From assembly GCA_964581035.1 (NCBI GenBank), contig CAZOLO010000001.1, positions 7,190-71,189 of the forward strand: a DNA stretch of 64,000 bases, read 5' to 3'. Under the pieces are notes generated by a model. The model was not told where the DNA came from. It ran no database searches and saw only the letters and a program-made list of their open reading frames with translations. Shown piece by piece: positions 419-63,589 of the stretch (positions within the stretch are counted from its first letter, which is position 1; every line of letters starts with the position of its first letter). The translations under genes and the position numbers were made by a program. This DNA is from an uncultured Candidatus Saccharibacteria bacterium (lineage in GTDB: Bacteria > Patescibacteriota > Minisyncoccia > Phycocordibacterales > CSBR16-119).

Positions 419-494
419 GGTGGCTATGGTATAACGGTCATTACTTCGGTTTGTGGTACCGACAATTCGGGTTCGATTCCCGATAGTCACCCCA
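419..494 (+). tRNA. tRNA-His (anticodon GUG) with encoded G-1 and 3' CCA
   Basis: Hand-folded cloverleaf: acceptor stem gtggcta/tagtcac (one G-U), T-loop TTCGATT with stem tcggg/cccga, anticodon stem tcggt/accga, loop ttGTGgt, extra 5' G opposite discriminator C73, CCA encoded. Confidence 0.88.
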
Positions 495-579: not shown

Positions 580-1767
580 ATGATTTGTCTTATGGAAAAT
601 GAAAAATCAGAATATAAAGATCTAACTCAACACGAGCTTGAGGCACTAAAGAACGAATTTAATTTAGCAGATGCTCACACACACCAGTCTCAATCTGTAT
701 CACAGAGAAAAATTGTAGAAAGTCTGCCAGAAATTTGGTATGAATCTGAAAGACTAATGCAACACGAATCAGATGAACGTTTTATCAAGGCTTTTTTTAC
801 TTTTCATAAACAACCAAAAGCTCTGGAAACTCCATCAATGCTTGTTTATGCGTCATCTATTGCAATGGTTATTGCCTCTAATTATTTCAAGAAAAAAGAC
901 TTATCTGTCGCATTGATAAGTCCCTGCTTTGATAATCTTCCAGACATTATGAAGCATATGCAGATTCCTCTTGAGCCATTACTTGAAGAATGGATGCATA
1001 ACCCTGATGAGCTTTATGACAACCTTAAAAACAATGTTAAATCAGATGTTTTATTTATTGTAAGCCCAAACAATCCAACTGGATGGGAGCTCACAGGAGG
1101 GGTGGGGACAGACTTTAAGAAGGGATTTGAGGAGCTTATTAGATATGCAAAAGATCACAACAAGATTCTTTCTTTTGACTTTTGTTTTGCATCTGCAATT
1201 CTTCACGACGAAAATACGCCAACCTTTGATGTATATGGCCTCCTTGAAGAGTCTGGAGTTAGTTACGTTGCGTACGAGGACACAGGTAAAACCTGGCCTC
1301 TTCAAGATGCTAAAGCTGCCATCCTGAAATGTAGCAAGGATATTTACCCTGAACTGTACGATATTCATACTGCGTATCTTTTAAATGTTTCACCTTTTAT
1401 TTTGAATGTCATCACTGAGTACATAAATGATTCCATTAAAGATGGGGGAGATTCAATAATAGGCCTGCTTGAAAGAAATAAAGAGATAACAAAGAACTAT
1501 CTGGATGGTGAATATTTTGAAATGCATGAGCCTAAAATACCAATCAGCGTTGCTTGGTTAAAGATTAAAAATCCCAACATCAAAGCGACGGATCTTCAGA
1601 AAAAAATATACGAAAAAGCAAAAGTGTATGTGCTTCCTGGAACCTACTTCTTTTGGGATAACCCAGAAAAAGGAGAGAGGTACATAAGGCTCGCTCTTGC
1701 TCGTGATACAGAAATATTAGAAGGGGCAGTTAAGGCAATAGCAGAAATAATCCCAGATCTTAAATAA
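580..1767 (+). CDS. PLP-dependent aminotransferase (class I/II fold)
   Basis: SPNNPTG motif, candidate Lys in YEDTGKTW, C-terminal aminotransferase-like region; 395 aa. Confidence 0.6.
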   Translation: MICLMENEKSEYKDLTQHELEALKNEFNLADAHTHQSQSVSQRKIVESLPEIWYESERLMQHESDERFIKAFFTFHKQPKALETPSMLVYASSIAMVIASNYFKKKDLSVALISPCFDNLPDIMKHMQIPLEPLLEEWMHNPDELYDNLKNNVKSDVLFIVSPNNPTGWELTGGVGTDFKKGFEELIRYAKDHNKILSFDFCFASAILHDENTPTFDVYGLLEESGVSYVAYEDTGKTWPLQDAKAAILKCSKDIYPELYDIHTAYLLNVSPFILNVITEYINDSIKDGGDSIIGLLERNKEITKNYLDGEYFEMHEPKIPISVAWLKIKNPNIKATDLQKKIYEKAKVYVLPGTYFFWDNPEKGERYIRLALARDTEILEGAVKAIAEIIPDLK

Positions 1768-1768
1768 A

Positions 1769-2566
1769 ATGACAAAAAAAGGAGACATAAAAGGTTTATA
1801 TATTCCGATAATTACGCCTATGAAAAAGGGGAAGGTTGATCTTACCTCTATGGGTAGGTTGATGGATTTTGTTGATCCTTTTATTGATGGTTTTGCACCA
1901 TGCTTGTCTTCTGGGGAGGGTGATGTTTTAAATGATGAACAGTGGCAAGAGGTTGTTTCATTTGTTAAATCTAAAACCACTAAACCTATTTTTGTTGGAA
2001 TAAAAAGAGGATCAATTGAGGATGTATTAAGGTTAGCAAACGCTGCTAAAGAAATTGGGTGTGAAGGCCTTACAATTCCTGTCCCAAGTAATGATATAGA
2101 TGAAACAAAAAGATTTTTTGAAAAAATTACTTCTAACGTAGACTTACCAATTATTATTTATAATACGGAAACCAAAAACATAAAGACTCTCAGAGACCTA
2201 AAGGTCGTTGATGAAAATGAAAGGATTGTCGCCATTAAGGATAGCTCCATGAATAAAGGATTCTTTGAATCTGTTTGTTCTGCGCGGGTCTCAGGAGGGT
2301 TAAAAATGAACGCTTTGCAAGGATTAGAACACTTGTTGGATACTCCAGAGGGTTGTGACGGTTATTTGGTCTCACTCTTAAATGTGGAGCCAAAACTTAC
2401 AAAACAATACTTTCTTGAGAGGGGGGAAAAAGAACATCAAGAGATTATGGATAAGTTTTACGAGTATAACCTTGGCGGAGAATGGTTTGTTACATTAAAA
2501 GCACTGCTTTATGCGAGAGGTCTAATCTCTTCTGCTGAACAGGTTAAGCAAGAAATTAAAATATGA
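1769..2566 (+). CDS. DapA/N-acetylneuraminate-lyase family class I aldolase-like protein
   Basis: Pattern GLYIPIITP...VD...SSGEG...IYN...IVAIKDSS parallels the DHDPS/NAL layout including the Schiff-base Lys context; abuts the upstream gene. Confidence 0.5.
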   Translation: MTKKGDIKGLYIPIITPMKKGKVDLTSMGRLMDFVDPFIDGFAPCLSSGEGDVLNDEQWQEVVSFVKSKTTKPIFVGIKRGSIEDVLRLANAAKEIGCEGLTIPVPSNDIDETKRFFEKITSNVDLPIIIYNTETKNIKTLRDLKVVDENERIVAIKDSSMNKGFFESVCSARVSGGLKMNALQGLEHLLDTPEGCDGYLVSLLNVEPKLTKQYFLERGEKEHQEIMDKFYEYNLGGEWFVTLKALLYARGLISSAEQVKQEIKI

Positions 2567-3030
2567 AAAAATTTATAGACCACACTGTTTTTATGGGAAT
2601 GAATAGCTCTGATGATAAAGTTCGGATTGCTTGTAAAAACTTTTTTATCGAATCTTTAGAAAATAAAGAAAAGTTACATATGAGCCTTGAATCTGTTGGT
2701 ATGTGTGATGATATTGTTTGGGGCTACGAAAGAGAGGTGCAGGATAGTTATTATCCTTTTATGGACAAGTTACACACGGTTATGGATGTTGAAAGAATCG
2801 CCTATGGAGAAGAAGACATTTTAGGTATTAATTCAAACTCAAATCTTTCAATTACGGATATCCTGACGATAAACCAGTCTTTAAAAGGTATTCTATATAC
2901 TTTGAATAAAAAAATATTGTCTTCTGATAAAGAAAATATCATGTCGCCAGAGATGTCAAATGAAGAACTTGTTTTCCCTGATGGTTTGGAGGAAGACTAT
3001 CAAACCTCGCTTGTTTTAAGATATAAATAG
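2563..3030 (+). CDS. hypothetical protein
   Basis: 155-aa ORF; its start overlaps the upstream stop (ATGA), so likely the same operon. Confidence 0.4.
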   Translation: MKKFIDHTVFMGMNSSDDKVRIACKNFFIESLENKEKLHMSLESVGMCDDIVWGYEREVQDSYYPFMDKLHTVMDVERIAYGEEDILGINSNSNLSITDILTINQSLKGILYTLNKKILSSDKENIMSPEMSNEELVFPDGLEEDYQTSLVLRYK

Positions 3031-3033
3031 GTT

Positions 3034-3171
3034 TTTAGTTCTAAAACTTTCCACCAAACGACCCCATTCATATATATCAATGAGACCTTGTAATATAAGG
3101 TCTTTTTGATTTCTTGGGTTACACCCCTAACAGGAAATCGAAATAAGAGATTCGCTTAACGGCAGGGTTTT
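3034..3171 (+). repeat. Intergenic repeat copy B (agttctaaaactttccaccaaacgaccccattcatatatatcaatg + hairpin + cacccctaacaggaaatcgaa + ttaacggcagggttttt tail)
   Basis: Aligned by eye to copies A, C, D and E. Confidence 0.75.
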
Positions 3172-3174
3172 TGT

Positions 3175-3951
3175 TTACATTTTCTTTGATTTCTCCCAGA
3201 TAAAATCGAACCAGGTTGAAAGCATTATTGCCATGCTTTCATTCTCTATGAGTGTTCCAAATAGGTTATCCTTAAGAGAGTAAAGGGCAATCTTGTTATC
3301 CCAAATAATTATATTTGATTTCATTCTTATTTTACCTTTGGGTCTTTTTCTTAAGTCTCTTAGGTATTTTTTATCATTCTCAAAAACTTCACCAGGTAAT
3401 CTTTTTGAGTCAGGGCGAATACCTTTAAGTTTTTTGCTATCTCTAAATCGTTTCTCATGGTATTTAGTTATGAAATCCTTACCCAGCTTTTCTGCTACAT
3501 CTAATTCGGAACCTGCGATTCTAATAACACCATCCTCTGAATCAAGGCTCTTCCACAAAAGTTTTTGTAAATTATCAGCTCCCTCATAATAAGAAACTTT
3601 AGTTGTGGATGAAGTGTTGTCAGATTGTATATCCTCAAAGAAGGGGAGCAATGTATTAAGCTCATTTTTTAAGTCAGAGATATGGGACTCTTTATTCTCC
3701 AGAAGCTTAATAAGTTCTTGTGGTCTAACAGCCTCAAGTTTTTTCCCATAAGCCCCTCCTGTTGTATGACAGACCCCTTTCTTTTCCAGCTTTTTGGCTA
3801 TGTCATAAAGGTTCGTTCTTGTTGATTGGGTTCCTTTTGCCACGCTTGTCATCAGCTGGGGGCCTTTCTGTAGACAGTATAAATAAACACGAATCTCTTT
3901 CGTGGACAGTTCTAATTTTCCGAGAAACTGTTTTATTTTGTTGCTTTTCAT
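3175..3951 (-). CDS. TrmB-family transcriptional regulator
   Basis: N-terminal wHTH resembling TrmB (LELSTKEIRVYLYCLQKGPQLMTSVAKGTQSTRTNLYDIAKKLEKKG). Confidence 0.5.
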   Translation of the reverse strand: MKSNKIKQFLGKLELSTKEIRVYLYCLQKGPQLMTSVAKGTQSTRTNLYDIAKKLEKKGVCHTTGGAYGKKLEAVRPQELIKLLENKESHISDLKNELNTLLPFFEDIQSDNTSSTTKVSYYEGADNLQKLLWKSLDSEDGVIRIAGSELDVAEKLGKDFITKYHEKRFRDSKKLKGIRPDSKRLPGEVFENDKKYLRDLRKRPKGKIRMKSNIIIWDNKIALYSLKDNLFGTLIENESMAIMLSTWFDFIWEKSKKM

Positions 3952-4039
3952 GAAGTGTTGTCGAAAGTATTACGACATGTGTACATACTATTCTATATTC
4001 TATATATTGCAAGTAGATCAATCTTTAAAAAACAGAAAA

Positions 4040-4540
4040 ATGAAAAGGAGATTAATAGACGAGTATGTGCTTTATCCAGAATTATCGCAAAAATACTTCA
4101 AGCAGTATTTTGAAAGAGATACCAAAAGTCTTTATGAATTCTACAATTTAGATTTAACAGAAATTAAGGTGTTTAGAAATCTTCACATGTTAGAGGGCGT
4201 GGGTATGGAGTTAGAAATTCCAAAGAGGTTACAGGCTTTGAATAAAAATACCCATGGAGGATGCCTTTCTTTTATCTTTGACGCTGTTATGGGTGTCGGT
4301 CTGGGTTTTCCCATGCTTATGCCAGAAAACTGCATTATGCAAACACGAGAGATTACAAAGATTGAAATCTTTAAACCGGTACCCACAGGAGAGAAAGTTC
4401 TTATCGTAGCAGAGATTGTAAAGTCGGTGGAGAACAGGAAGTTCTGGGTGAGTTCAGAGATCAGGAACAAGCAAAGGGAGACCTTGGCTGTAGCTGAAGG
4501 TTTCTTTCTAAAGGTTCAGATAAATGACTTATTAGATTGA
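4040..4540 (+). CDS. PaaI/4HBT-type hotdog-fold thioesterase
   Basis: NTHGGCLSFIFDAVMG motif plus C-terminal hotdog pattern; start moved to internal ATG 4040 (MKRRLIDEY) because the track ORF start at 3902 overlaps the divergent regulator. Confidence 0.5.
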   Translation: MKRRLIDEYVLYPELSQKYFKQYFERDTKSLYEFYNLDLTEIKVFRNLHMLEGVGMELEIPKRLQALNKNTHGGCLSFIFDAVMGVGLGFPMLMPENCIMQTREITKIEIFKPVPTGEKVLIVAEIVKSVENRKFWVSSEIRNKQRETLAVAEGFFLKVQINDLLD

Positions 4541-4547
4541 AATATAA

Positions 4548-4575
4548 TAAAGCCCCTTCATATTTTGGAGGGGTT
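4548..4575 (+). terminator. rho-independent terminator hairpin
   Basis: cccct...agggg stem followed by TTTTT. Confidence 0.5.
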
Positions 4576-4591
4576 TTTAATTTGGCAATAT

Positions 4592-4701
4592 CTTAGTTTT
4601 AAAACATTCCACCAAACGACCCCATTCATATATATCAATGAGACCTTGAAACACAAGGTCTTTTTGATTACCCAGGTGGCACCCCTAACAGGAAATCGAA
4701 C
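4592..4701 (+). repeat. Intergenic repeat copy C (hairpin loop variant gaaacaca)
   Basis: Aligned by eye to copies A, B and D; contains inverted CCACC...GGTGG flanking the hairpin. Confidence 0.75.
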
Positions 4702-4834
4702 TAAAAATGTAGAATTTGTAATTTTTTGACAAATTTGCAAAAACATTTTTTGTTTGTTATTTTGTAAGTATAGACACCTTAGAACGTCATATATGGTGTA
4801 AAGGTAATTATTAGATTTAATTTTTTTAATAAAT

Positions 4835-5557
4835 ATGAAAACAAAAACAAAAGTTTTAACAAAAGAGGTAATGTCAGCAGTTGTTCTTATGTCATTCCTG
4901 CTTATACCACTCTTCGGAGCATCGGCTCAGATCGGATTGGATCTTAATGGAGAGACTAACTCTGAGACATCGGTAGGCGGAGACGGTGATGCCTCTATGG
5001 ATACAACATCAGAAGTTAACGTAAATCTTGACTCTAGCTCTAACACAAATACTAATAATGAAAATGGACTCACTGTTGAGGTTGATGGAGTAGATCTTTC
5101 AGTCGAATCATCATCTCAGGTAAATTCAGAAGCAGATCTTTCAGCATTTAGTTCTAATACTGAAATGAAGAACGAAAACATTGCAAAAGTTAAGGTTGGC
5201 GGTGATTCGTCAGGTGAAGCTGAGGCAAAGATTGTCTACAAGCATGATGCAAAATTCCTTGGATTTATTCCTGTAAAGATTAAATCTCGAACAACTGTTG
5301 AGTCAGAGACTCAGGGAGAAGTTAAGGTGCGATCAAGATTAGCTTGGTGGAGCTTCTTTGCAAGTAATATTGCATATAACAAATCAGACGTTGAGTCTCG
5401 AATTAAAAACAACGCACGAGTACAGGCCAGATCTCAAGTTGGACTTAATGCTAAAGCAAAAGCTGAAATTGCAGAGGAGGTCATTTCTGAAATTAAGGCA
5501 AGCACAGAAGCAGCTGCACAAGTAAAAGCTTCAGGTTCAGCATCAGTTGGATACTAA
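4835..5557 (+). CDS. secreted low-complexity (Ser/Thr/Asn/Glu-rich) protein
   Basis: N-terminal signal peptide (MKTKTKVL...LIPLFGASAQ), then compositionally biased sequence. Confidence 0.5.
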   Translation: MKTKTKVLTKEVMSAVVLMSFLLIPLFGASAQIGLDLNGETNSETSVGGDGDASMDTTSEVNVNLDSSSNTNTNNENGLTVEVDGVDLSVESSSQVNSEADLSAFSSNTEMKNENIAKVKVGGDSSGEAEAKIVYKHDAKFLGFIPVKIKSRTTVESETQGEVKVRSRLAWWSFFASNIAYNKSDVESRIKNNARVQARSQVGLNAKAKAEIAEEVISEIKASTEAAAQVKASGSASVGY

Positions 5558-5632
5558 AGTAGTTCTAAAACTTTCCACCAAACGACCCCATTCATATATA
5601 TCAATGAGACCTTGAAACACAAGGTCTTTTTG
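5558..5632 (+). repeat. Intergenic repeat copy D (left arm + hairpin; right arm replaced)
   Basis: Identical left arm and hairpin (loop variant gaaacaca); the downstream module differs from copies A-C. Confidence 0.7.
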
Positions 5633-5681
5633 AGGTGAGTCGCCATCTAGGTGGTAGAGGGCTCCCTGAGATAGGATTACT

Positions 5682-6236
5682 TTGATGTATAATAAAATTA
5701 TGAATCACGAACATCACAATCATTCAGGTATGAAAATTCATACCGAACAAAAGAAAGGTTTTAAACAGTTTATTCCACTTGTTTTTATGGCGGCAGTGGT
5801 GGTTGTACTCACTCTTGTTTTTAATGCAATCTGTCCACTAGAAGCACCTGTGCCAGTTATGAGAAATTTCATGGGTTCATTTTTCTTGGTCTTTGGACTC
5901 CTTAAACTTTTCAAGTTAAAAGATTTTGCTACTGCATATGCCAAGTATGATCTGCTAGCAATGAGATCAAAATTATATGCAAAAGCATATCCCTTTATTG
6001 AGCTTGCGTTGGCGGCGGTCTACTTGTTTAATTTTGAATTACTTATCACCAGCTGGGTGACTGCAGTTTTGATGCTTGTGGGTGCGCTTGGTGTGTATAT
6101 TAAACTTAGAAAGAAAGAAGAGATTCAGTGCGCATGTCTTGGAACCGTGTTTAAGCTGCCGATGACATATGTTACTCTTGTTGAAGACTTGCTTATGGCT
6201 GGCATGGCGATTTATATAATAATTAAATTAATTTAG
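5682..6236 (+). CDS. MauE/DoxX-like polytopic membrane protein
   Basis: Four or five TM segments with a C-terminal CACLG motif; family assignment is tentative. Confidence 0.4.
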   Translation: MMYNKIMNHEHHNHSGMKIHTEQKKGFKQFIPLVFMAAVVVVLTLVFNAICPLEAPVPVMRNFMGSFFLVFGLLKLFKLKDFATAYAKYDLLAMRSKLYAKAYPFIELALAAVYLFNFELLITSWVTAVLMLVGALGVYIKLRKKEEIQCACLGTVFKLPMTYVTLVEDLLMAGMAIYIIIKLI

Positions 6237-6241
6237 AAAAT

Positions 6242-6709
6242 ATGAATAAAAAAGTAACAAATATAATTTTAGGACTTATTGGAATAGGGGCTATTGTTCT
6301 TCTTGTTTGGGGAGGGGGTAATTCTTCGGTTGAAGAAAATCCAATTGTTTCAACAAGTGGAACAGAGGTTCCATGTCTTCCAAATGGTCACCAAGCTGTG
6401 GCTCAGCACATTCACCCAGTTATCAGCATTAGTGTTGATGGAGAAGAAGAGTTTATTCCAGCAAATGTTGGTATTGAGGGTCTGTGTATGAGAGAGGTTC
6501 ATACACATGACGCAACAGGGACGATTCATATCGAAACAAAAGAGGTAAACACGACATACACACTGCCTGACTTCTTTGCTGTGTTGGGAGCGCCTATGGA
6601 GCGAGAGGGGTACTCTATGACAGCAACAAAAGACGAGGAAGAGGTTTCTCCAGAAGAGCTGGTTTTCGAGGATGGCTCAATGGTAGAGGTTAGATACATT
6701 TCAATTTAG
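6242..6709 (+). CDS. membrane-anchored hypothetical protein with His-rich motifs
   Basis: N-terminal TM anchor; HIHPV...EVHTHDATGTIHIE motifs; two Cys residues. Confidence 0.45.
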   Translation: MNKKVTNIILGLIGIGAIVLLVWGGGNSSVEENPIVSTSGTEVPCLPNGHQAVAQHIHPVISISVDGEEEFIPANVGIEGLCMREVHTHDATGTIHIETKEVNTTYTLPDFFAVLGAPMEREGYSMTATKDEEEVSPEELVFEDGSMVEVRYISI

Positions 6710-6877
6710 TTCTAGCTCCTTCATTAAACGACTCAAAATAGACACAACAGTATATACATACCCCAGGACATCCTCTGTTTCGCTTTAAATTCAAAATAGG
6801 CGCACAGCTACTTTTTTCGCTCATCTTGAGCAAAGCTCAATTCACCTTAAAAACCTTGATTAACGGCAGGGTTTTTA
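6710..6877 (+). repeat. Degenerate repeat copy E ending in the ttaacggcagggttttt 17-mer
   Basis: agttcta...aaacgac left end is similar to copies B-D; the 3' 17-mer is identical to 3155-3171. Confidence 0.5.
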
Positions 6878-6900
6878 TTTTTTCTTGCTATACTTAACAA

Positions 6901-7659
6901 ATGGAAATATTAATTACATTACTGGTTTCGCTAGGTATTAATCTAACTATGTTTATACCGGCTTTTATATTTAAAACAGACAAATTAACCGACATTTCAT
7001 ATGCTGTTACCTTTGTTGTTGTTGCATTGTTTGGTTTATTATCTGGTGAAATCTCACTACTAAAAATTCTATATGTCGCAGCTATCGGTCTTTGGGCTAT
7101 TAGACTTGGCTCATATCTTCTTATTCGTATTCGAAAAATTGGTAGAGACAAAAGATTTGATGGCAAGAGAGATAATTTCTTTTGGTTTCTTCGGTTTTGG
7201 GTTTTGCAAGGTATTACTGTTTGGGTGGTGATGATACCGGGAACATATTTTCTAAATGGTTCAGTTTCAAAAAATCTTCTTTGGCCTATTTTGGGAATAA
7301 TTGTTTTTGTTGCAGGTCTTTTGATTGAGACTTTTGCTGATTTGCAAAAATATAGATTTATCAATAATCCTGAAAACAAAGGTCAGTGGATAGATTCTGG
7401 ATTATGGTCTATTTCTCGTCATCCAAACTATCTCGGGGAGATTATGGTTTGGGTGGGGCTCTATCTTTTTGCAGCTCCTTCGCTTGTCGGAAATACAATA
7501 TGGGTAGGACTAATTGGGCCAGGATTTATCGCTTATATGATTATTTTTGTTAGCGGAATACCTATTTTGGAAAAGGGGGCAGACAAGATGTGGGGTGATA
7601 ATCCTAGATACCAAGAATATAAAAATAGAGCAGGAATGCTGCTTCCAAAAATATTTTAA
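6901..7659 (+). CDS. DUF1295 / steroid-5-alpha-reductase-like membrane protein (ICMT/PEMT superfamily)
   Basis: SRHPNYLGEIMVWVGLYL signature; polytopic. Confidence 0.6.
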   Translation: MEILITLLVSLGINLTMFIPAFIFKTDKLTDISYAVTFVVVALFGLLSGEISLLKILYVAAIGLWAIRLGSYLLIRIRKIGRDKRFDGKRDNFFWFLRFWVLQGITVWVVMIPGTYFLNGSVSKNLLWPILGIIVFVAGLLIETFADLQKYRFINNPENKGQWIDSGLWSISRHPNYLGEIMVWVGLYLFAAPSLVGNTIWVGLIGPGFIAYMIIFVSGIPILEKGADKMWGDNPRYQEYKNRAGMLLPKIF

Positions 7660-7686
7660 AAAAACCTCATAAATGAGGTTTTTTAT
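7658..7686. terminator. bidirectional terminator hairpin
   Basis: aaaaaaacctcataaatgaggtttttt between convergent genes. Confidence 0.55.
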
Positions 7687-8321
7687 CTAATTTGAGGTGG
7701 TCTCCAAAATATGTTTTCCAGAACCCCGTGATTAGAACCTTTTTTAAGTTTTTTTGCATATTTTTCTCCTCTTTTTTTACATTTATTTAGGAGTGACTGG
7801 TTTTTCGAAGCTTCAATATCTCCGGTGTATATTGCTCCAAATACTCTTGCCCCAAAATATAGAAAGACTCCTCTGAGCCAAAAAGGAGGAAAGGTGAAAA
7901 AGAGTATTCTCTGAGCCCAGTTTGGTGTCCCTCCTGTGACCAGGAAATATGTGCCTAGGTGAGCAAGATTTCCTTTTGGCTGCCCGAGTCTTGTCTTCGA
8001 TTCCATATTCAGTGCAAAAAATCTCATTCGGTCTATAAAGTTTTTTAAGTGAGCGGGGACAGAGAAGTTGTATGTTGGTGTTGCGATAATTAGTCCTTCG
8101 GCCTCGGTCATAATTTTTCTAGAAAGCTCTCCAAAAGCTTCCTCATTTGGTAGAACGCCCTTGCTGTTTGTGTAATTATAAAGCTCAATATGTATGTCTT
8201 CAAGGTATATTTTCTCAACCTCTATACCATCTACACTTTCAGATCCAGAGATAAAACTATCTAGCATGGTATCCGAATTTCTTCCTCTAGATGGTGAGCA
8301 TGACAGCGCTACTATTTTCAT
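7683..8321 (-). CDS. NADPH-dependent FMN reductase-like flavoprotein
   Basis: Flavodoxin-like fold pattern MKIVALSCSP.RG.NS...LIIATPTYNFSVPAHLKNFIDR. Confidence 0.5.
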   Translation of the reverse strand: MKIVALSCSPSRGRNSDTMLDSFISGSESVDGIEVEKIYLEDIHIELYNYTNSKGVLPNEEAFGELSRKIMTEAEGLIIATPTYNFSVPAHLKNFIDRMRFFALNMESKTRLGQPKGNLAHLGTYFLVTGGTPNWAQRILFFTFPPFWLRGVFLYFGARVFGAIYTGDIEASKNQSLLNKCKKRGEKYAKKLKKGSNHGVLENIFWRPPQIR

Positions 8322-39243: not shown

Positions 39244-39643
39244 GGAAGCAAAGCTACCAACCTATGGTCACCCTGGTGATGCAGGTATGGATATTTATGC
39301 ATTAGCAGAAACTGCTGTTCCTGCTAATGGAACTAGTAAAATAAAAACAGGAATTGCAATTGAGATCCCAGAAGGCTACGTGGCTCTTTGTTGGGATAAA
39401 TCTGGACTCTCTTTAAATGAAGGAATAAAGGTTATTGGGGGAGTGTTTGACTCAGGGTACAGAGGTGAATACATCGTTGGAGTTTATAATATGAAAGATG
39501 AACCTTTTGTTTTTGGAAAAGGGCAAAAAATTATGCAAGTTCTGGTACAACCCGTTGTGGCTGGAGAGATATTGGAAGTGGATGAATTATCAGAGTCCTC
39601 TGGAAGGGGGGAATCCGGCAGAGGAAGCACTGGGTTACACTAA
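39215..39643 (+). CDS. dut: dUTP diphosphatase
   Basis: GDAGMDIYA, DSGYRGE and RGESGRGSTG motifs; overlaps the glyA 3' end by 29 nt. Confidence 0.85.
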   Translation: MLIKIKKLHKEAKLPTYGHPGDAGMDIYALAETAVPANGTSKIKTGIAIEIPEGYVALCWDKSGLSLNEGIKVIGGVFDSGYRGEYIVGVYNMKDEPFVFGKGQKIMQVLVQPVVAGEILEVDELSESSGRGESGRGSTGLH

Positions 39644-39699
39644 GACTTGCAAAGGCAGGTCTTTTTTATTAATGTAAGAAAAAACATAGATCTTGCAAT

Positions 39700-40263
39700 A
39701 TGTCACATTACTCAAAAATTCTTTTTGATCCAAAAAATAATAAGTTTTGTTTAGAACCTGAAGGTAGGGATAACCCTCCAAATATTACCGATGAGATGTT
39801 AGATACAGCCTCTAGGATACTTAATGTCATTCATAATGTTCTCGGTATTAAACCTGAAGACGTTCTGATAAAGACTAGAAAAAGAGAGATCACTGAGGCT
39901 AGGTATAACTTTTTTGCAATGATGAGATTCTCATTTTCAAAACTCTCATATCAAGAAATAGGGGCCTTTGTAGAAGGAAAGAAAAGTTCTATTGGCATGG
40001 ATCATTCTAGTGTTCATCATGCTGAAATAACTCACAATAATAATTGTGATACTGACTCTCAATATAGAATAAGGGCAAAAGCCATAGAAGATATCTTCAA
40101 AGAAAATGTTCTCCCTGAAGAAGCTCTTCTAAATAGGACTTTCTCTTTCAAGGAGATGAAGGAGGTTCTAATAAGAAATGGTGTACCTAGACCATTTTTC
40201 TCTAGAGAAATGTTTCCTGAGAAATTTGCCATGAAGGTAAAAACATCAGTCAATGAATTATGA
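39700..40263 (+). CDS. DnaA C-terminal-domain-like HTH protein (paralogue 1)
   Basis: KTRKREITEARYNFFAMMRF..SYQEIGAFVEGKKSSIGMDHSSVHHA parallels DnaA domain IV. Confidence 0.45.
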   Translation: MSHYSKILFDPKNNKFCLEPEGRDNPPNITDEMLDTASRILNVIHNVLGIKPEDVLIKTRKREITEARYNFFAMMRFSFSKLSYQEIGAFVEGKKSSIGMDHSSVHHAEITHNNNCDTDSQYRIRAKAIEDIFKENVLPEEALLNRTFSFKEMKEVLIRNGVPRPFFSREMFPEKFAMKVKTSVNEL

Positions 40264-40319
40264 TTAAAGACTTGCAAATGCAAGTTTTTTTTATTAATGT
40301 TGATTAAATTCATAATTAT

Positions 40320-40997
40320 TTGAAAATGTCGAAGAAAAAATTAAACCTAAGATTTCCTGTAATTGAGTATGATTCAGTTAAAAAGGAGTTTATATGGGAG
40401 ACTGTTAAGTCTAGAAGAATTACTAAAGATATCCTTTCTTCAGCACTGAGTCTACTTAATCTTATTTCTGAGATTTCAGATGTTGATGTTGAGGATCTAT
40501 TAAAGACAGGTAGAGAGAGAAGATTTGTTTATGGCAGAAATATTTTCATAGCCTTGATGCGAAAAAGATATCCTGAGATTAGCTATTCAGATATCGGCTC
40601 TTTTTTTGAAGGGGAAACTCTTAATCTTTCAAAGGATCATGCTTCAGTCATTCATGGCCGAAGAACCCACCATCAGCTTCTGAAGAAGAAGATCTGGTAC
40701 AAAGAGAGGTCTCAAAAGATAAGACTTACTTGGGAGCAGGGGTGGCTTACAGATGAAGAAATAGGAAGTCAAAAGTTTTCTATGGACGAGCTGAGGTCTA
40801 TCTTGGAAGGAAATGGTATTGAGTTTTTTGGTGCGAAAAATATACCCACTTCAGAGGAGAAGGAGGATCTACGGTTTAAACCAAAAGAAATTAGAAACCT
40901 TTTAAGGGGTAATGGTGTAATGAATCCTTTGATCACAAAAGGAATGTTGCCCTCAAGGTTTCTTTATGAACCCAAAGGGTTAGAGACGGTCACTTAG
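40320..40997 (+). CDS. DnaA C-terminal-domain-like HTH protein (paralogue 2)
   Basis: GRERRFVYGRNIFIALMRKRYPEISYSDIGSFFEGETLNLSKDHASVIHG; its upstream terminator/leader is duplicated from paralogue 1. Confidence 0.45.
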   Translation: MKMSKKKLNLRFPVIEYDSVKKEFIWETVKSRRITKDILSSALSLLNLISEISDVDVEDLLKTGRERRFVYGRNIFIALMRKRYPEISYSDIGSFFEGETLNLSKDHASVIHGRRTHHQLLKKKIWYKERSQKIRLTWEQGWLTDEEIGSQKFSMDELRSILEGNGIEFFGAKNIPTSEEKEDLRFKPKEIRNLLRGNGVMNPLITKGMLPSRFLYEPKGLETVT

Positions 40998-62488: not shown

Positions 62489-63589
62489 TTATTGATTTAA
62501 TTCATCCTTCAATCCTTTCTGTACATCCTTTAGTAGGGAAGCAAGGATTTTTTTATTCTCCTTATCTTCAAGTACTTTTCGAGTTGCGTCATATCCTCGA
62601 GCAAGTTTTATCTCATCACTTCCATCTAGCGGTAGGTAGCTGTATGAAGCTCCAGCCTTCTTAATGATCTTCATTTTCTCGCCTAGAGCAAGCAGTTCTC
62701 CTGAGCGTGAGATTCCTTCGTTGTAGATAATATCAAACTCTGTCTTTTTGAATGGGGAAGCTACTTTGTTTTTTACAACCTTAACTCTAGTTCGGGCCCC
62801 AACTACATCTTCTCCTTTTTTAATCTGAGCAATTCTTCGGATATCAAGACGTACTGATGTGTAGAACTTTAGAGCTTTTCCTCCTGGGGTAGTTTCTGGT
62901 GATCCAAACATAACTCCAATTTTCATTCTAATTTGGTTGATGAAGATAACCATTGTCTTACTCTTAGCTGTTAGAGCAGTAAGCTTTCGAAGAGCTTGTG
63001 ACATAAGTCTAGCTTGCTTACCAACATGGTGAGCACCCATATCTCCTTCAATTTCGTCTTTTGGTGTTAGGGCGGCTACAGAGTCCACTACAATAACGTC
63101 GATCTTTCCAGATCGAACCAGACTCTCTGTGATCTCCAGAGCTTGCTCTCCTGTGTCAGGTTGAGATATAAGTAGGTTTTCGATGTCTACTCCAAGCTTT
63201 TTAGAGTAGTCTGGGTCCATACCATGCTCAGCATCAATAAAAGCACAAACTCCTCCCATTTTTTGAGCTTCAGCAATTACATGCAGGGTAAGAGTCGTCT
63301 TACCAGAAGACTCTGGTCCATATATTTCTATAATTCTACCTTTAGGTAGCCCACCTATTCCAAGTGCATGATCAAGACCTAGTGATCCCGTTGGTATAGC
63401 TCCAATATCCACCTTTGGAGTGCTTCCAAGCTTCATTATTGAACCTTCTCCAAACTTTGTCTGGATAGATCGAATTGTATCTTGAATGTCAGAATTATTG
63501 ATTCCTGATGTGTCTTTTACAACCTCATCGCCTGAAGTTTTTTTAGTTTCTTTTTTCGCTGCTTTTTTTGTTGTTTTTTTCGCTGCCAT
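62489..63589 (-). CDS. recA: recombinase RecA
   Basis: Walker [10 protein letters not shown]; [24 protein letters not shown]; L1/L2 loops. Confidence 0.95.

Follow-up and report, generated by a model that had tools for sequence, protein, structure and literature searches.

Directly behind the gene for tRNA-His, a 64,000-nt stretch of contig CAZOLO010000001.1 (assembly GCA_964581035.1, an uncultured Candidatus Saccharibacteria bacterium), which we call the window, carries short blocks of genes, or cassettes, that are separated by direct copies of a ~112-nt repeat unit with a hairpin. This arrangement raises the questions (i) how the cassettes came to lie there; (ii) what the hairpin is; and (iii) whether the unit folds into a site like the attC sites of integrons, as had been proposed from the DNA letters and their open reading frames (ORFs) alone (the sequence-only reading). 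Mobile DNA and gene flow are poorly understood in bacteria of the candidate phyla radiation (CPR, or Patescibacteria), whose tiny genomes hold few recognisable mobile elements. Immediately 3' of tRNA-His, we find, several related species maintain a hypervariable slot that holds short cassettes without an integrase, and the 30-nt element closing these cassettes is at least as strongly conserved as the tRNA. The units are probably att-type junctions, left by the serial site-specific integration of small circular cassettes without an integrase of their own.

Organization of the repeat array

The window contains four clear direct copies of the unit, A (463/489–574), B (3035–3146), C (4593–4704) and D (5559–5634), and a degenerate fifth copy, E, at ~6707–6880. 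The sequence-only reading had overlooked that copy A is fused to the 3' end of tRNA-His (GTG) at 420–494, the sole tRNA gene of the window: the last six nucleotides of the tRNA, ACCCCA (489–494), are the first bases of the copy, and the identity between A and the other copies begins there and extends over trailer and terminator. The other three clear copies, B, C and D, have a 30-nt left arm (LA), TTAGTTCTAAAACTTTCCACCAAACGACCC, where A has the tRNA body; the window contains three copies of this arm, against none expected. A right arm (RA), ACCCCTAACAGGAAATCGAA, is found in A, B and C and is lacking in D, whose similarity to the other units stops after TTTTTGA and gives way to unrelated sequence. 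The array consists of the following parts.

420–494, + strand: tRNA-His (GTG) with encoded CCA (ARAGORN; Rfam tRNA, 56.2 bits), the anchor of the array
489–584, + strand: unit A, the tRNA-proximal junction, without left arm
3035–3064, + strand: left arm of unit B, the conserved cassette-end element
3065–3082, no strand: AT-rich dyad core CATTCA-TATATA-TCAATG, a candidate crossover region (junction comparison)
3083–3107, + strand: the hairpin under study, a predicted terminator, with stem 3083–3090/3096–3103, loop TAATA and T-run 3103–3107
3123–3142, + strand: right arm of unit B (three copies against none expected)
3156–3172, + strand: a second type of terminator, TTAACGGCAGGGTTTTT, in a truncated copy; the 17-mer recurs exactly at 6860–6876
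4593–4704, + strand: unit C, with LA (2 mismatches), core, terminator stem 4641–4661 with loop AAACA, and RA 4681–4700
5559–5634, + strand: unit D, the distal junction, with LA, core and terminator stem 5607–5627, without RA
6707–6880, + strand: unit E, degenerate, with an LA-like start TTAGTTCTAGCTCCTTCATTAAACGAC, a type-2-like AT spacer, ~95 nt of extra sequence and a type-2 terminator (6848–6877)

Unit A is made up of ACCCCA, the AT dyad core (493–510), the terminator stem (511–531) with its T-run (531–535) and the RA (551–570), and ends at 584 in an extended -10-like box, TGGTATGAT. The box TTTGGTATGAT of this unit, likewise extended -10-like, stands at the end of many units, including type-2 units of two related species (L022 and L027, see below), just 5' of the first start codon of the next cassette. 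Stop codons often lie within the first bases of the LA. Because the 17-mer found at 3156 and 6860 is the dominant type-2 terminator in L022 and L027, copy E is a decayed type-2 unit.

The distribution of the two arms is exactly that expected of attL, hybrid and attR sites. Serial integration would explain why unit A consists of tRNA, core and RA (B-O-P'), units B and C of LA, core and RA (P-O-P'), and unit D of LA, core and an unrelated old flank (P-O-B').

A conserved slot with variable content in related species

The window is identical to contigs of the 'Candidatus Parcubacteria' metagenome-assembled genome (MAG) GCA_009995395.1. The corresponding loci of four relatives (L020, L022, L024 and L027) were fetched via the VKOR protein that is encoded just upstream of tRNA-His, the identities of this protein to the relatives' loci being 77, 74, 68 and 63%. 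VKOR is followed by tRNA-His in all four, and farther along lie the conserved genes for a DUF1295 protein (76% identical to that of L022), an FMN reductase (67% to that of L024) and an aldolase. The genes between tRNA-His and this conserved core are entirely different in every species. In L020, L022 and L027 every gene block ends in the LA, while L024 holds one degenerate LA-like copy only. Across the four species with the LA (the window, L020, L022 and L027) the arm is identical at 30 of 30 positions, compared with nucleotide identities of 65–72% for the VKOR genes, 41–72% for the spacer between VKOR and tRNA-His, and 91–97% for the tRNA.

An LA profile (nhmmer, E = 1e-10) and a covariance model of the whole unit found copies only in the tRNA-His arrays and always on the tRNA strand; the rest of the 64-kb window had none, nor did ~210 kb of related loci. 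Two further blocks are closed by diverged LA-like motifs, one of 3.3 kb that lies 3' of tRNA-His in a Pacebacteria MAG (L015), the other a short one with a 140-aa ORF in L011. Distant VKOR relatives (≤48% identity) have no LA array, and the order VKOR–tRNA-His is kept in two of them (L029 and L032) and not in a third (L033). Exact-pattern scans with the type-1 core gave no match in viral_contigs or genome_contigs, and scans with the LA none in metagenome_contigs or viral_contigs, collections that evidently do not hold these contigs, although they are present in JGI, ENA and NCBI; the type-2 terminator had no match in viral_contigs either. The 16-mer TTCCACCAAACGACCC had six viral matches, all by chance and none in an LA context.

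One cassette gene could be followed between species. Its homologues, of 156 and 158 aa (53% identical), occupy position 2 in L022 and position 4 in L027, and both are preceded by a type-2 unit. Since the same unit type precedes the shifted gene, it seems that the sequence right of the core moves together with the following cassette, and the LA with the preceding one. Further homologues lie directly after parB in a conserved core context (L036 1337–2026, L037 10001–10420 and L035 6066–6791), one of them on a scaffold that shares its assembly with L022, and none within an array; the 156-aa cassette gene thus has a chromosomal paralogue family.

To judge from these sequences, the array is conserved as a system, and variable in content, across several Paceibacteria-like species. 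With cassette-wise variation bounded by units in four related species, it is very probable that the unit is a recombination-related site bounding cassettes, as the sequence-only reading had supposed.

Independent assemblies break at or just past units, at the start of L002 (= window 489) and at the ends of L020 (13179) and L028 (12595). Such arrays, and the accessory genes in them, are therefore probably under-recovered in MAGs.

Junction anatomy and mosaic units

We lined up 19 junctions. The ACCC(C)A that follows the LA or the tRNA always copies the end of that genome's own tRNA-His, which encodes the full CCA in the window (489–494) and in L020 (…CACCCCA), and lacks it in L022 (11127–11130) and L027 (11053–11056; …CACCCA); accordingly, junctions of the window and L020 read CCCCA, those of L022 and L027 CCCA. 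They are followed by an AT-rich dyad with TATATA at its centre, CATTCA-TATATA-TCAATG in the window, ATTCG-TATATA-CGAAT in L022, where it forms the perfect 16-bp palindrome ATTCGTATATACGAAT, and AAATG-TATATA-CATAT in type-2 units of L022. Paired changes preserve the symmetry (ATTCG..CGAAT, ATG..CAT, ATTCA..TCAAT). As RNA, the dyads would form only weak hairpins of -1 to -4 kcal/mol, which argues for a protein-binding DNA site over an RNA structure.

The dyad is followed by a terminator, for which five unrelated sequences are used across the junctions; type 2 dominates in L022 and L027. Several units are mosaics of these types. Unit 17004 of L022 is type 3 up to TATATA and type 1 beyond, and the tRNA-proximal unit of the same locus is type 2 in its left half and type 3 in its right. 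One true tRNA-His fragment, of 20 nt, lies in the L027 array.

The hairpin as terminator of tRNA-His

All four clear copies contain GAGACCTTG-N6-AAGGTCTTTTT followed by TTTTT, and the hairpin described by the sequence-only reading is thus present in each. In A and B it reads AGACCTTG-TAATA-TAAGGTCT, with G·T as the eighth pair, and in C and D AGACCTTG-AAACA-CAAGGTCT, with G-C as the eighth pair. The 8-bp stem AGACCTTG/CAAGGTCT had been called invariant, which is true of seven of its pairs but not of the eighth. Likewise, the reported switch of the loop between A/B and C/D reflects a real clustering of differences, but one of the three (T>A, T>C, T>C) affects the closing pair, on its 3' side. 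Of 75 aligned positions, four are different between B and D; three of these lie within 6 nt of the loop, and the fourth is the first base of the LA. Loop changes cannot be compensatory, and the proposal that the hairpin is kept by compensatory loop changes is therefore wrong: no double-sided stem change occurs, and among seven type-1 units, in which the helix is 100% paired, six of the eight pairs never vary and two vary on one side.

The hairpin has the parts of an intrinsic terminator: an 8-bp GC-containing stem, a 5-nt loop, a T-run and an upstream A-tract. It lies 17 nt past the CCA of tRNA-His and 3' of cassette ORFs, and a terminator scan flags it together with its T-run, at a folding energy of -14.7 to -15.7 kcal/mol. 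A search of Rfam gave the tRNA as the sole match. Since copy A begins in the 3' end of the tRNA, and the identity spans trailer and terminator, the terminator that the sequence-only reading had correctly suspected would be that of the tRNA-His trailer. On the evidence of these alignments, the hairpin is an ordinary tRNA terminator, duplicated in every unit, and would be expected to stop transcription from the tRNA or from the preceding cassette. Compared with other intrinsic terminators, it differs in being embedded in, and copied with, a putative recombination junction; otherwise there is nothing unusual about it.

Absence of an attC-like fold

For the seven type-1 units, RNAalifold returned only the terminator hairpin with an extension by the A- and T-tracts, and no double-sided change. 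When both strands were folded as single-stranded DNA (ssDNA), the z-scores of -0.8 to -1.5 were no better than those of shuffles, and the centroids held the terminator hairpin and at most one further local stem. The short inverted boxes that were thought to pair around the hairpin fared as follows. TTTCC and GGAAA, the former within the LA of unit B, do exist, but 1513 of 2000 shuffles match as well; CCACC does lie in the conserved LA, but GGTGG occurs inside the repeat only in unit C (the GGTGG near unit D falls in the unrelated flank), and the helix is paired in 43% of cells. Neither TTTCC/GGAAA nor (CC)ACC/GGT(GG) covaries beyond shuffles. The RA pairs locally with TTGATTTC directly 3' of the T-run, and a local second hairpin, TTGATTnC.../...GAAATCGAA, is 72–83% paired, again without double changes.

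The unit boundaries, read from the alignment, contain no GTTRRRY/RYYYAAC, in agreement with the mismatch to the integron consensus that the sequence-only reading had itself conceded. Units begin with TTAGTTCTAA and end with ATCGAAC; the resulting GTTC...GAAC has a polarity opposite to RYYYAAC...GTTRRRY, and GTTCTAA violates RRR. The sequence-only reading had staked its attC-like fold on a stable structure extending beyond the terminator hairpin and on covariation of the outer boxes; the extended structure does not exist, and the fold is refuted.

The reverse complement of the RA, GTTCGATTTCC, resembles the T-loop and T-arm of tRNA-His (22–68 of 2000 shuffles are as good), and the right arm of L022 contains an inverted TAGTTCTAA from the start of the LA (59 of 2000 shuffles). 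In view of these two observations, the core of some unit types may be flanked by short inverted boxes that bind protein. Altogether, the sites resemble duplex junctions of the att type at a tRNA gene, unlike folded attC sites.

Probable serial integration and alternative explanations

In the serial integration that we consider probable, an incoming cassette would end in the 30-nt LA and in ACCC(C)A, reproducing the last bases of the tRNA; the TATATA-centred dyad would probably be the region of strand exchange; and beyond it would follow a spacer, the intrinsic terminator, in some unit types the RA, and often the promoter-like TGGTATGAT box. On insertion at the tRNA-proximal site, the tRNA would receive a new trailer and terminator, both supplied by the incoming cassette, and each new insertion would push the older units downstream. 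The recombinase is not encoded in the array and would have to act in trans, presumably on circular intermediates; candidates are a host Xer-like tyrosine recombinase, the involvement of which is pure conjecture, or the large serine recombinases whose targets in related genomes are tRNA 3' ends. None of the cassettes of the window, L020, L022, L024 and L027 encodes an integrase domain, and the gaps between cassette genes are too short for an integrase. The lack of any integrase trace in these five genomes, the very small size of the cassettes, the duplication of only 6 nt of tRNA and the conserved arm of non-tRNA sequence lead us to read the cassettes as never having borne an integrase and as being moved in trans.

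A number of results weigh against this interpretation. No recombinase was found, either by Pfam among the 50 window proteins scanned or in the 7.4 kb upstream; tblastn with three tRNA-His-associated large serine recombinases matched only the antisense strand of the tRNA itself; and the dyad core matched none of the known recombinase sites that could be tested. The window does encode RecA (62489–63589) and RecO. The species shows a single fixed array: 22 of 22 contigs with cassette 3, from many samples, are collinear with the window, and no excised circle or circle junction, empty site or alternative cassette order was seen among them. Ten of ten loci with the DUF6190 protein of cassette 1 are likewise collinear, and 99.97–100% identical. 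With no variation within the species, the case for mobility comes from the comparison between species. Several junctions also deviate from a simple exchange at the core: in unit 15475 of L022, type 3 on the left is joined to a type-2 terminator with the switch ~8 nt to the right of TATATA; in unit B, a truncated type-2 terminator is joined after the RA; the cassette common to L022 and L024 starts 60–80 nt past the terminator; and type-2 units have no right arm. Finally, the duplicated part of the tRNA is only the 6 nt ACCCCA, the other ≥43 nt of the repeat being trailer, and the LA is not tRNA-like, with 7 of 26 ungapped matches to the tRNA body in the alignment.

Two derivations of the unit from known sequences were considered and rejected. 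The LA is not a degenerate 3' half of tRNA-His, as its 7/26 ungapped identity rules this out, and the type-1 trailer is not a relic of the C-terminal coding region of a recombinase, the similarity ending with the tRNA. By eye, we know of no convincing match between the core and the dif sites of E. coli or B. subtilis.

Some of these results would be accounted for without a dedicated recombinase, by homologous recombination or gene conversion: the units would be portable modules of tRNA trailer, terminator and promoter, circles or fragments sharing a module of 85–110 nt would integrate Campbell-style via RecA, and gene conversion would then homogenise the copies within a genome. The missing recombinase, the fixed array, the switch points away from the core and the presence of RecA and RecO make this a serious rival, and it would fit the finding that units are far more alike within a genome than between genomes (in the window and L020 every unit is type 1, and in L027 most are type 2) and that type switches do not all fall at one position. 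However, it leaves unexplained the 100% conservation of the LA amid intergenic identities of 41–72%, the dyad core kept by paired changes and the strict single orientation; moreover, the LA has no homology to the tRNA and so cannot serve Campbell integration there. We therefore regard it as unlikely. Were the unit instead a miniature inverted-repeat transposable element (MITE), that is, a non-autonomous ~112-nt element with short inverted ends TTAGTTC...GAACTAA that inserted repeatedly between genes, its typical size, the 9-nt inverted ends of copy C (12 of 2000 shuffles score as well) and the inverted TAGTTCTAA in the L022 right arm would be accounted for. This is quite improbable, as the copies in the 64-kb window and ~210 kb of related loci stand in a single orientation and behind tRNA-His only, A has no left end and D no right end, exactly as att hybrids would, target-site duplications are lacking, and type-2 units have no right end at all.

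Still lower on our scale stands an element acting in RNA, in which the LA, ACCCCA and the hairpins would mimic a tRNA 3' end and serve to process or stabilise cassette mRNAs at their 3' ends. Such a role would fit with the LA being followed by the exact terminus and trailer of the tRNA, and with the small structured inserts ending in tRNA 3' ends at other CPR loci (see below), but the LA has no conserved pairing partner and no Rfam match, occurs at no other gene end of the window, and keeps its orientation even beside cassette genes on the opposite strand (cassette 2; L022 15539–16783); we consider this highly improbable. An integron-like attC site, recognised as a single-stranded R''/L''-L'/R' hairpin by an integron-type integrase, is in our view scarcely credible. 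The logic of the array is integron-like, with short integrase-less cassettes, a conserved site at the 3' end and stop codons in the LA start, yet the consensus fold, the pairing of the boxes and the boundary polarity described above all speak against it, and no intI, attI or Pc was found next to the array.

Beyond serial integration as such, Paceibacteria-like CPR bacteria may possess a dedicated, previously undescribed cassette-capture platform, analogous to integrons but built differently, a proposal that we put forward tentatively and hold to be doubtful as it stands. In such a platform the tRNA-His trailer would be the fixed insertion site; cassettes of 0.2–2.5 kb that never carried an integrase would bring a 30-nt arm with a dyad core, their own terminator and often a promoter, and would thereby be insulated transcriptionally; and a chromosomal recombinase, either Xer-like or a tRNA-targeting large serine enzyme, would act in trans. 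If a recombinase acting in trans does move the cassettes, streamlined genomes would have a compact, integron-like means of exchanging accessory genes, and the LA would be a simple sequence tag with which to find the slots, and the recombinase responsible, in thousands of MAGs.

Large serine recombinase genes that end inside a tRNA gene of the opposite strand were seen in other CPR genomes, at L014 4590–6242 (-), L019 405–2012 (-) and L012 5366–6799 (-), in tRNA-oriented coordinates, and at L024 5800–7368 (+). The C-terminal ...WGDYRESNP of such recombinases is encoded by the antisense strand of the T-arm and acceptor of tRNA-His. In L024, a 5.3-kb element with such a recombinase lies between direct repeats of the tRNA-Val 3' end, each 19 bp long, and fills the gap between tRNA-Arg and tRNA-Val, which is 40–330 nt long in relatives.

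Cassette genes and other features

The genes between and beyond the units are as follows.

580–3030, + strand: cassette 1, encoding a class I/II aminotransferase, a DHDPS-family protein and a DUF6190 protein (Pfam)
3175–4540, both strands: cassette 2, encoding a TrmB-like helix-turn-helix (HTH) protein (3175–3951, -) and a 166-aa protein (4040–4540, +)
4835–5557, + strand: cassette 3, a single gene for a secreted-looking 240-aa protein, an ORFan
5682–6709, + strand: genes for a MauE/DoxX-like membrane protein and a 155-aa protein, an older cassette or ancestral flank
6901–8321, both strands: conserved core genes bounding the variable region, for a DUF1295 protein (6901–7659, +; Pfam DUF1295) and an FMN reductase (7683–8321, -; Pfam FMN_red/Flavodoxin_2)

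Cassette 1 is missing at the same position in L020, L022, L024 and L027. Cassette 2 has a terminator-like hairpin of its own, CCCTTCATATTTTGGAGGGG with a T-run (4554–4573), just 5' of the LA of unit C, so that the terminator of the unit is not the sole stop signal there. A homologue search with the protein of cassette 3 returned only the protein itself, and no homologue of the MauE-like/155-aa block was found in the relatives' arrays. Among the cassette proteins, PHROGs gave no phage-function match and one match to a family of unknown function (the aminotransferase), and PADLOC gave nothing. GC content is flat at ~35%, without an island signature.

Small GC-rich non-coding inserts of 150–430 nt follow a complete tRNA and its terminator at L016 (reverse-oriented 7609–7815), L018 (5373–5585), L024 (159–350) and L027 (12790–12955), each ending in a 17–20 nt direct repeat of the tRNA 3' end. 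Those of L016, L018 and L024 start with an inverted tRNA end, so that their ends pair in a 12–16 bp helix closing a structured domain; these three have GAGTGAG in common, and L018 and L024 also GAACGAAGTGAGT. The inserts had no Rfam match. The unusually GC-rich flank to the right of unit D (window 5635–5680) contains GGTGAGTCGCC, reminiscent of this GAGTGAG, and may be a remnant of such an insert. Elsewhere in the window, the ORFs at 39700–40263 and 40320–40997 encode tandem paralogous small proteins with a DnaA C-terminal HTH domain, each preceded by a copy of a 34-nt terminator-like repeat (39642–39675 and 40267–40300; 91% identical).

Comparison with known systems

Tandem islands at tRNA genes are an established precedent (Islander/TIGER; PMC4383910). 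As in these, the tRNA is intact, each foreign block stops at a direct repeat of tRNA end and trailer, newer insertions would lie nearest the tRNA, and the arms follow the logic of attL, hybrid and attR sites. However, classical islands carry their own integrase and duplicate 15–100 nt of the tRNA body, whereas the blocks described here measure 0.2–2.5 kb and end in a 30-nt non-tRNA arm that is conserved across species. Judged by the tDNA-fragment rule of Islander, the direct repeats are correctly oriented, but their tRNA share is just the 6 nt ACCCCA, and the one integrase per island that Islander expects is lacking from the cassettes of the window, L020, L022, L024 and L027.

The accretion of integrase-less cis-mobilizable elements (CIMEs) in streptococci is a second precedent (PMC5704250). 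Like CIMEs, the cassettes are att-bounded, lack integration genes, stand in tandem at the 3' end of a target gene and would be mobilised, if at all, by an integrase encoded elsewhere; cassettes 1–3 have the structure of CIMEs, with attL/attR flanks and no integration or transfer genes. CIMEs are, however, decayed integrative and conjugative or integrative and mobilizable elements (ICEs or IMEs), usually beside a functional relative, whereas the ≥14 cassettes in five genomes show no trace of a decayed integrase and have no intact element alongside. No parent element was found for them, and the pattern scans of viral, genome and metagenome contigs returned no unit copies, the six matches being due to chance. 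The strong conservation of the arm suggests that the cassettes never had an integrase, rather than being products of decay.

Prochlorococcus islands, with elements separated by partial tRNAs, are a third precedent (tycheposons; 10.1101/2020.12.28.424599). They share with our array a streamlined host, variable tRNA-anchored islands, separators holding part of a tRNA and cargo of metabolic or unknown function. Tycheposons, in contrast, carry a hallmark tyrosine or large serine recombinase together with replication genes; the cassettes have neither, and their separators are not partial tRNAs.

With integrons the array shares short recombinase-less cassettes, a conserved recombination-type site at the 3' end and insertion apparently at one platform site, but here the platform is the tRNA-His trailer, and the attC fold, the R'/R'' consensus and an adjacent intI or Pc are all lacking. 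With a terminator in the units, and in many cases a promoter-like box as well, the cassettes appear to be transcriptionally insulated, unlike integron arrays with their common promoter. The Xer-dependent modules of Acinetobacter (pdif/dif, IMEX; PMC6449649) are likewise recombinase-less, with short sites, a dyad core around a 6-bp centre (here TATATA) and a presumed host recombinase. Sites of the Xer/dif type measure 28 bp, with two recombinase-binding arms of 11 bp on either side of the 6-bp centre. Their sites, however, alternate in orientation and lie on plasmids, while all the units are direct repeats, chromosomal and at a tRNA, with a dyad core that shows no convincing match, by eye, to the known dif consensus. 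The system is thus close in its logic to integron cassettes and to Xer-dependent dif modules, and is a member of neither.

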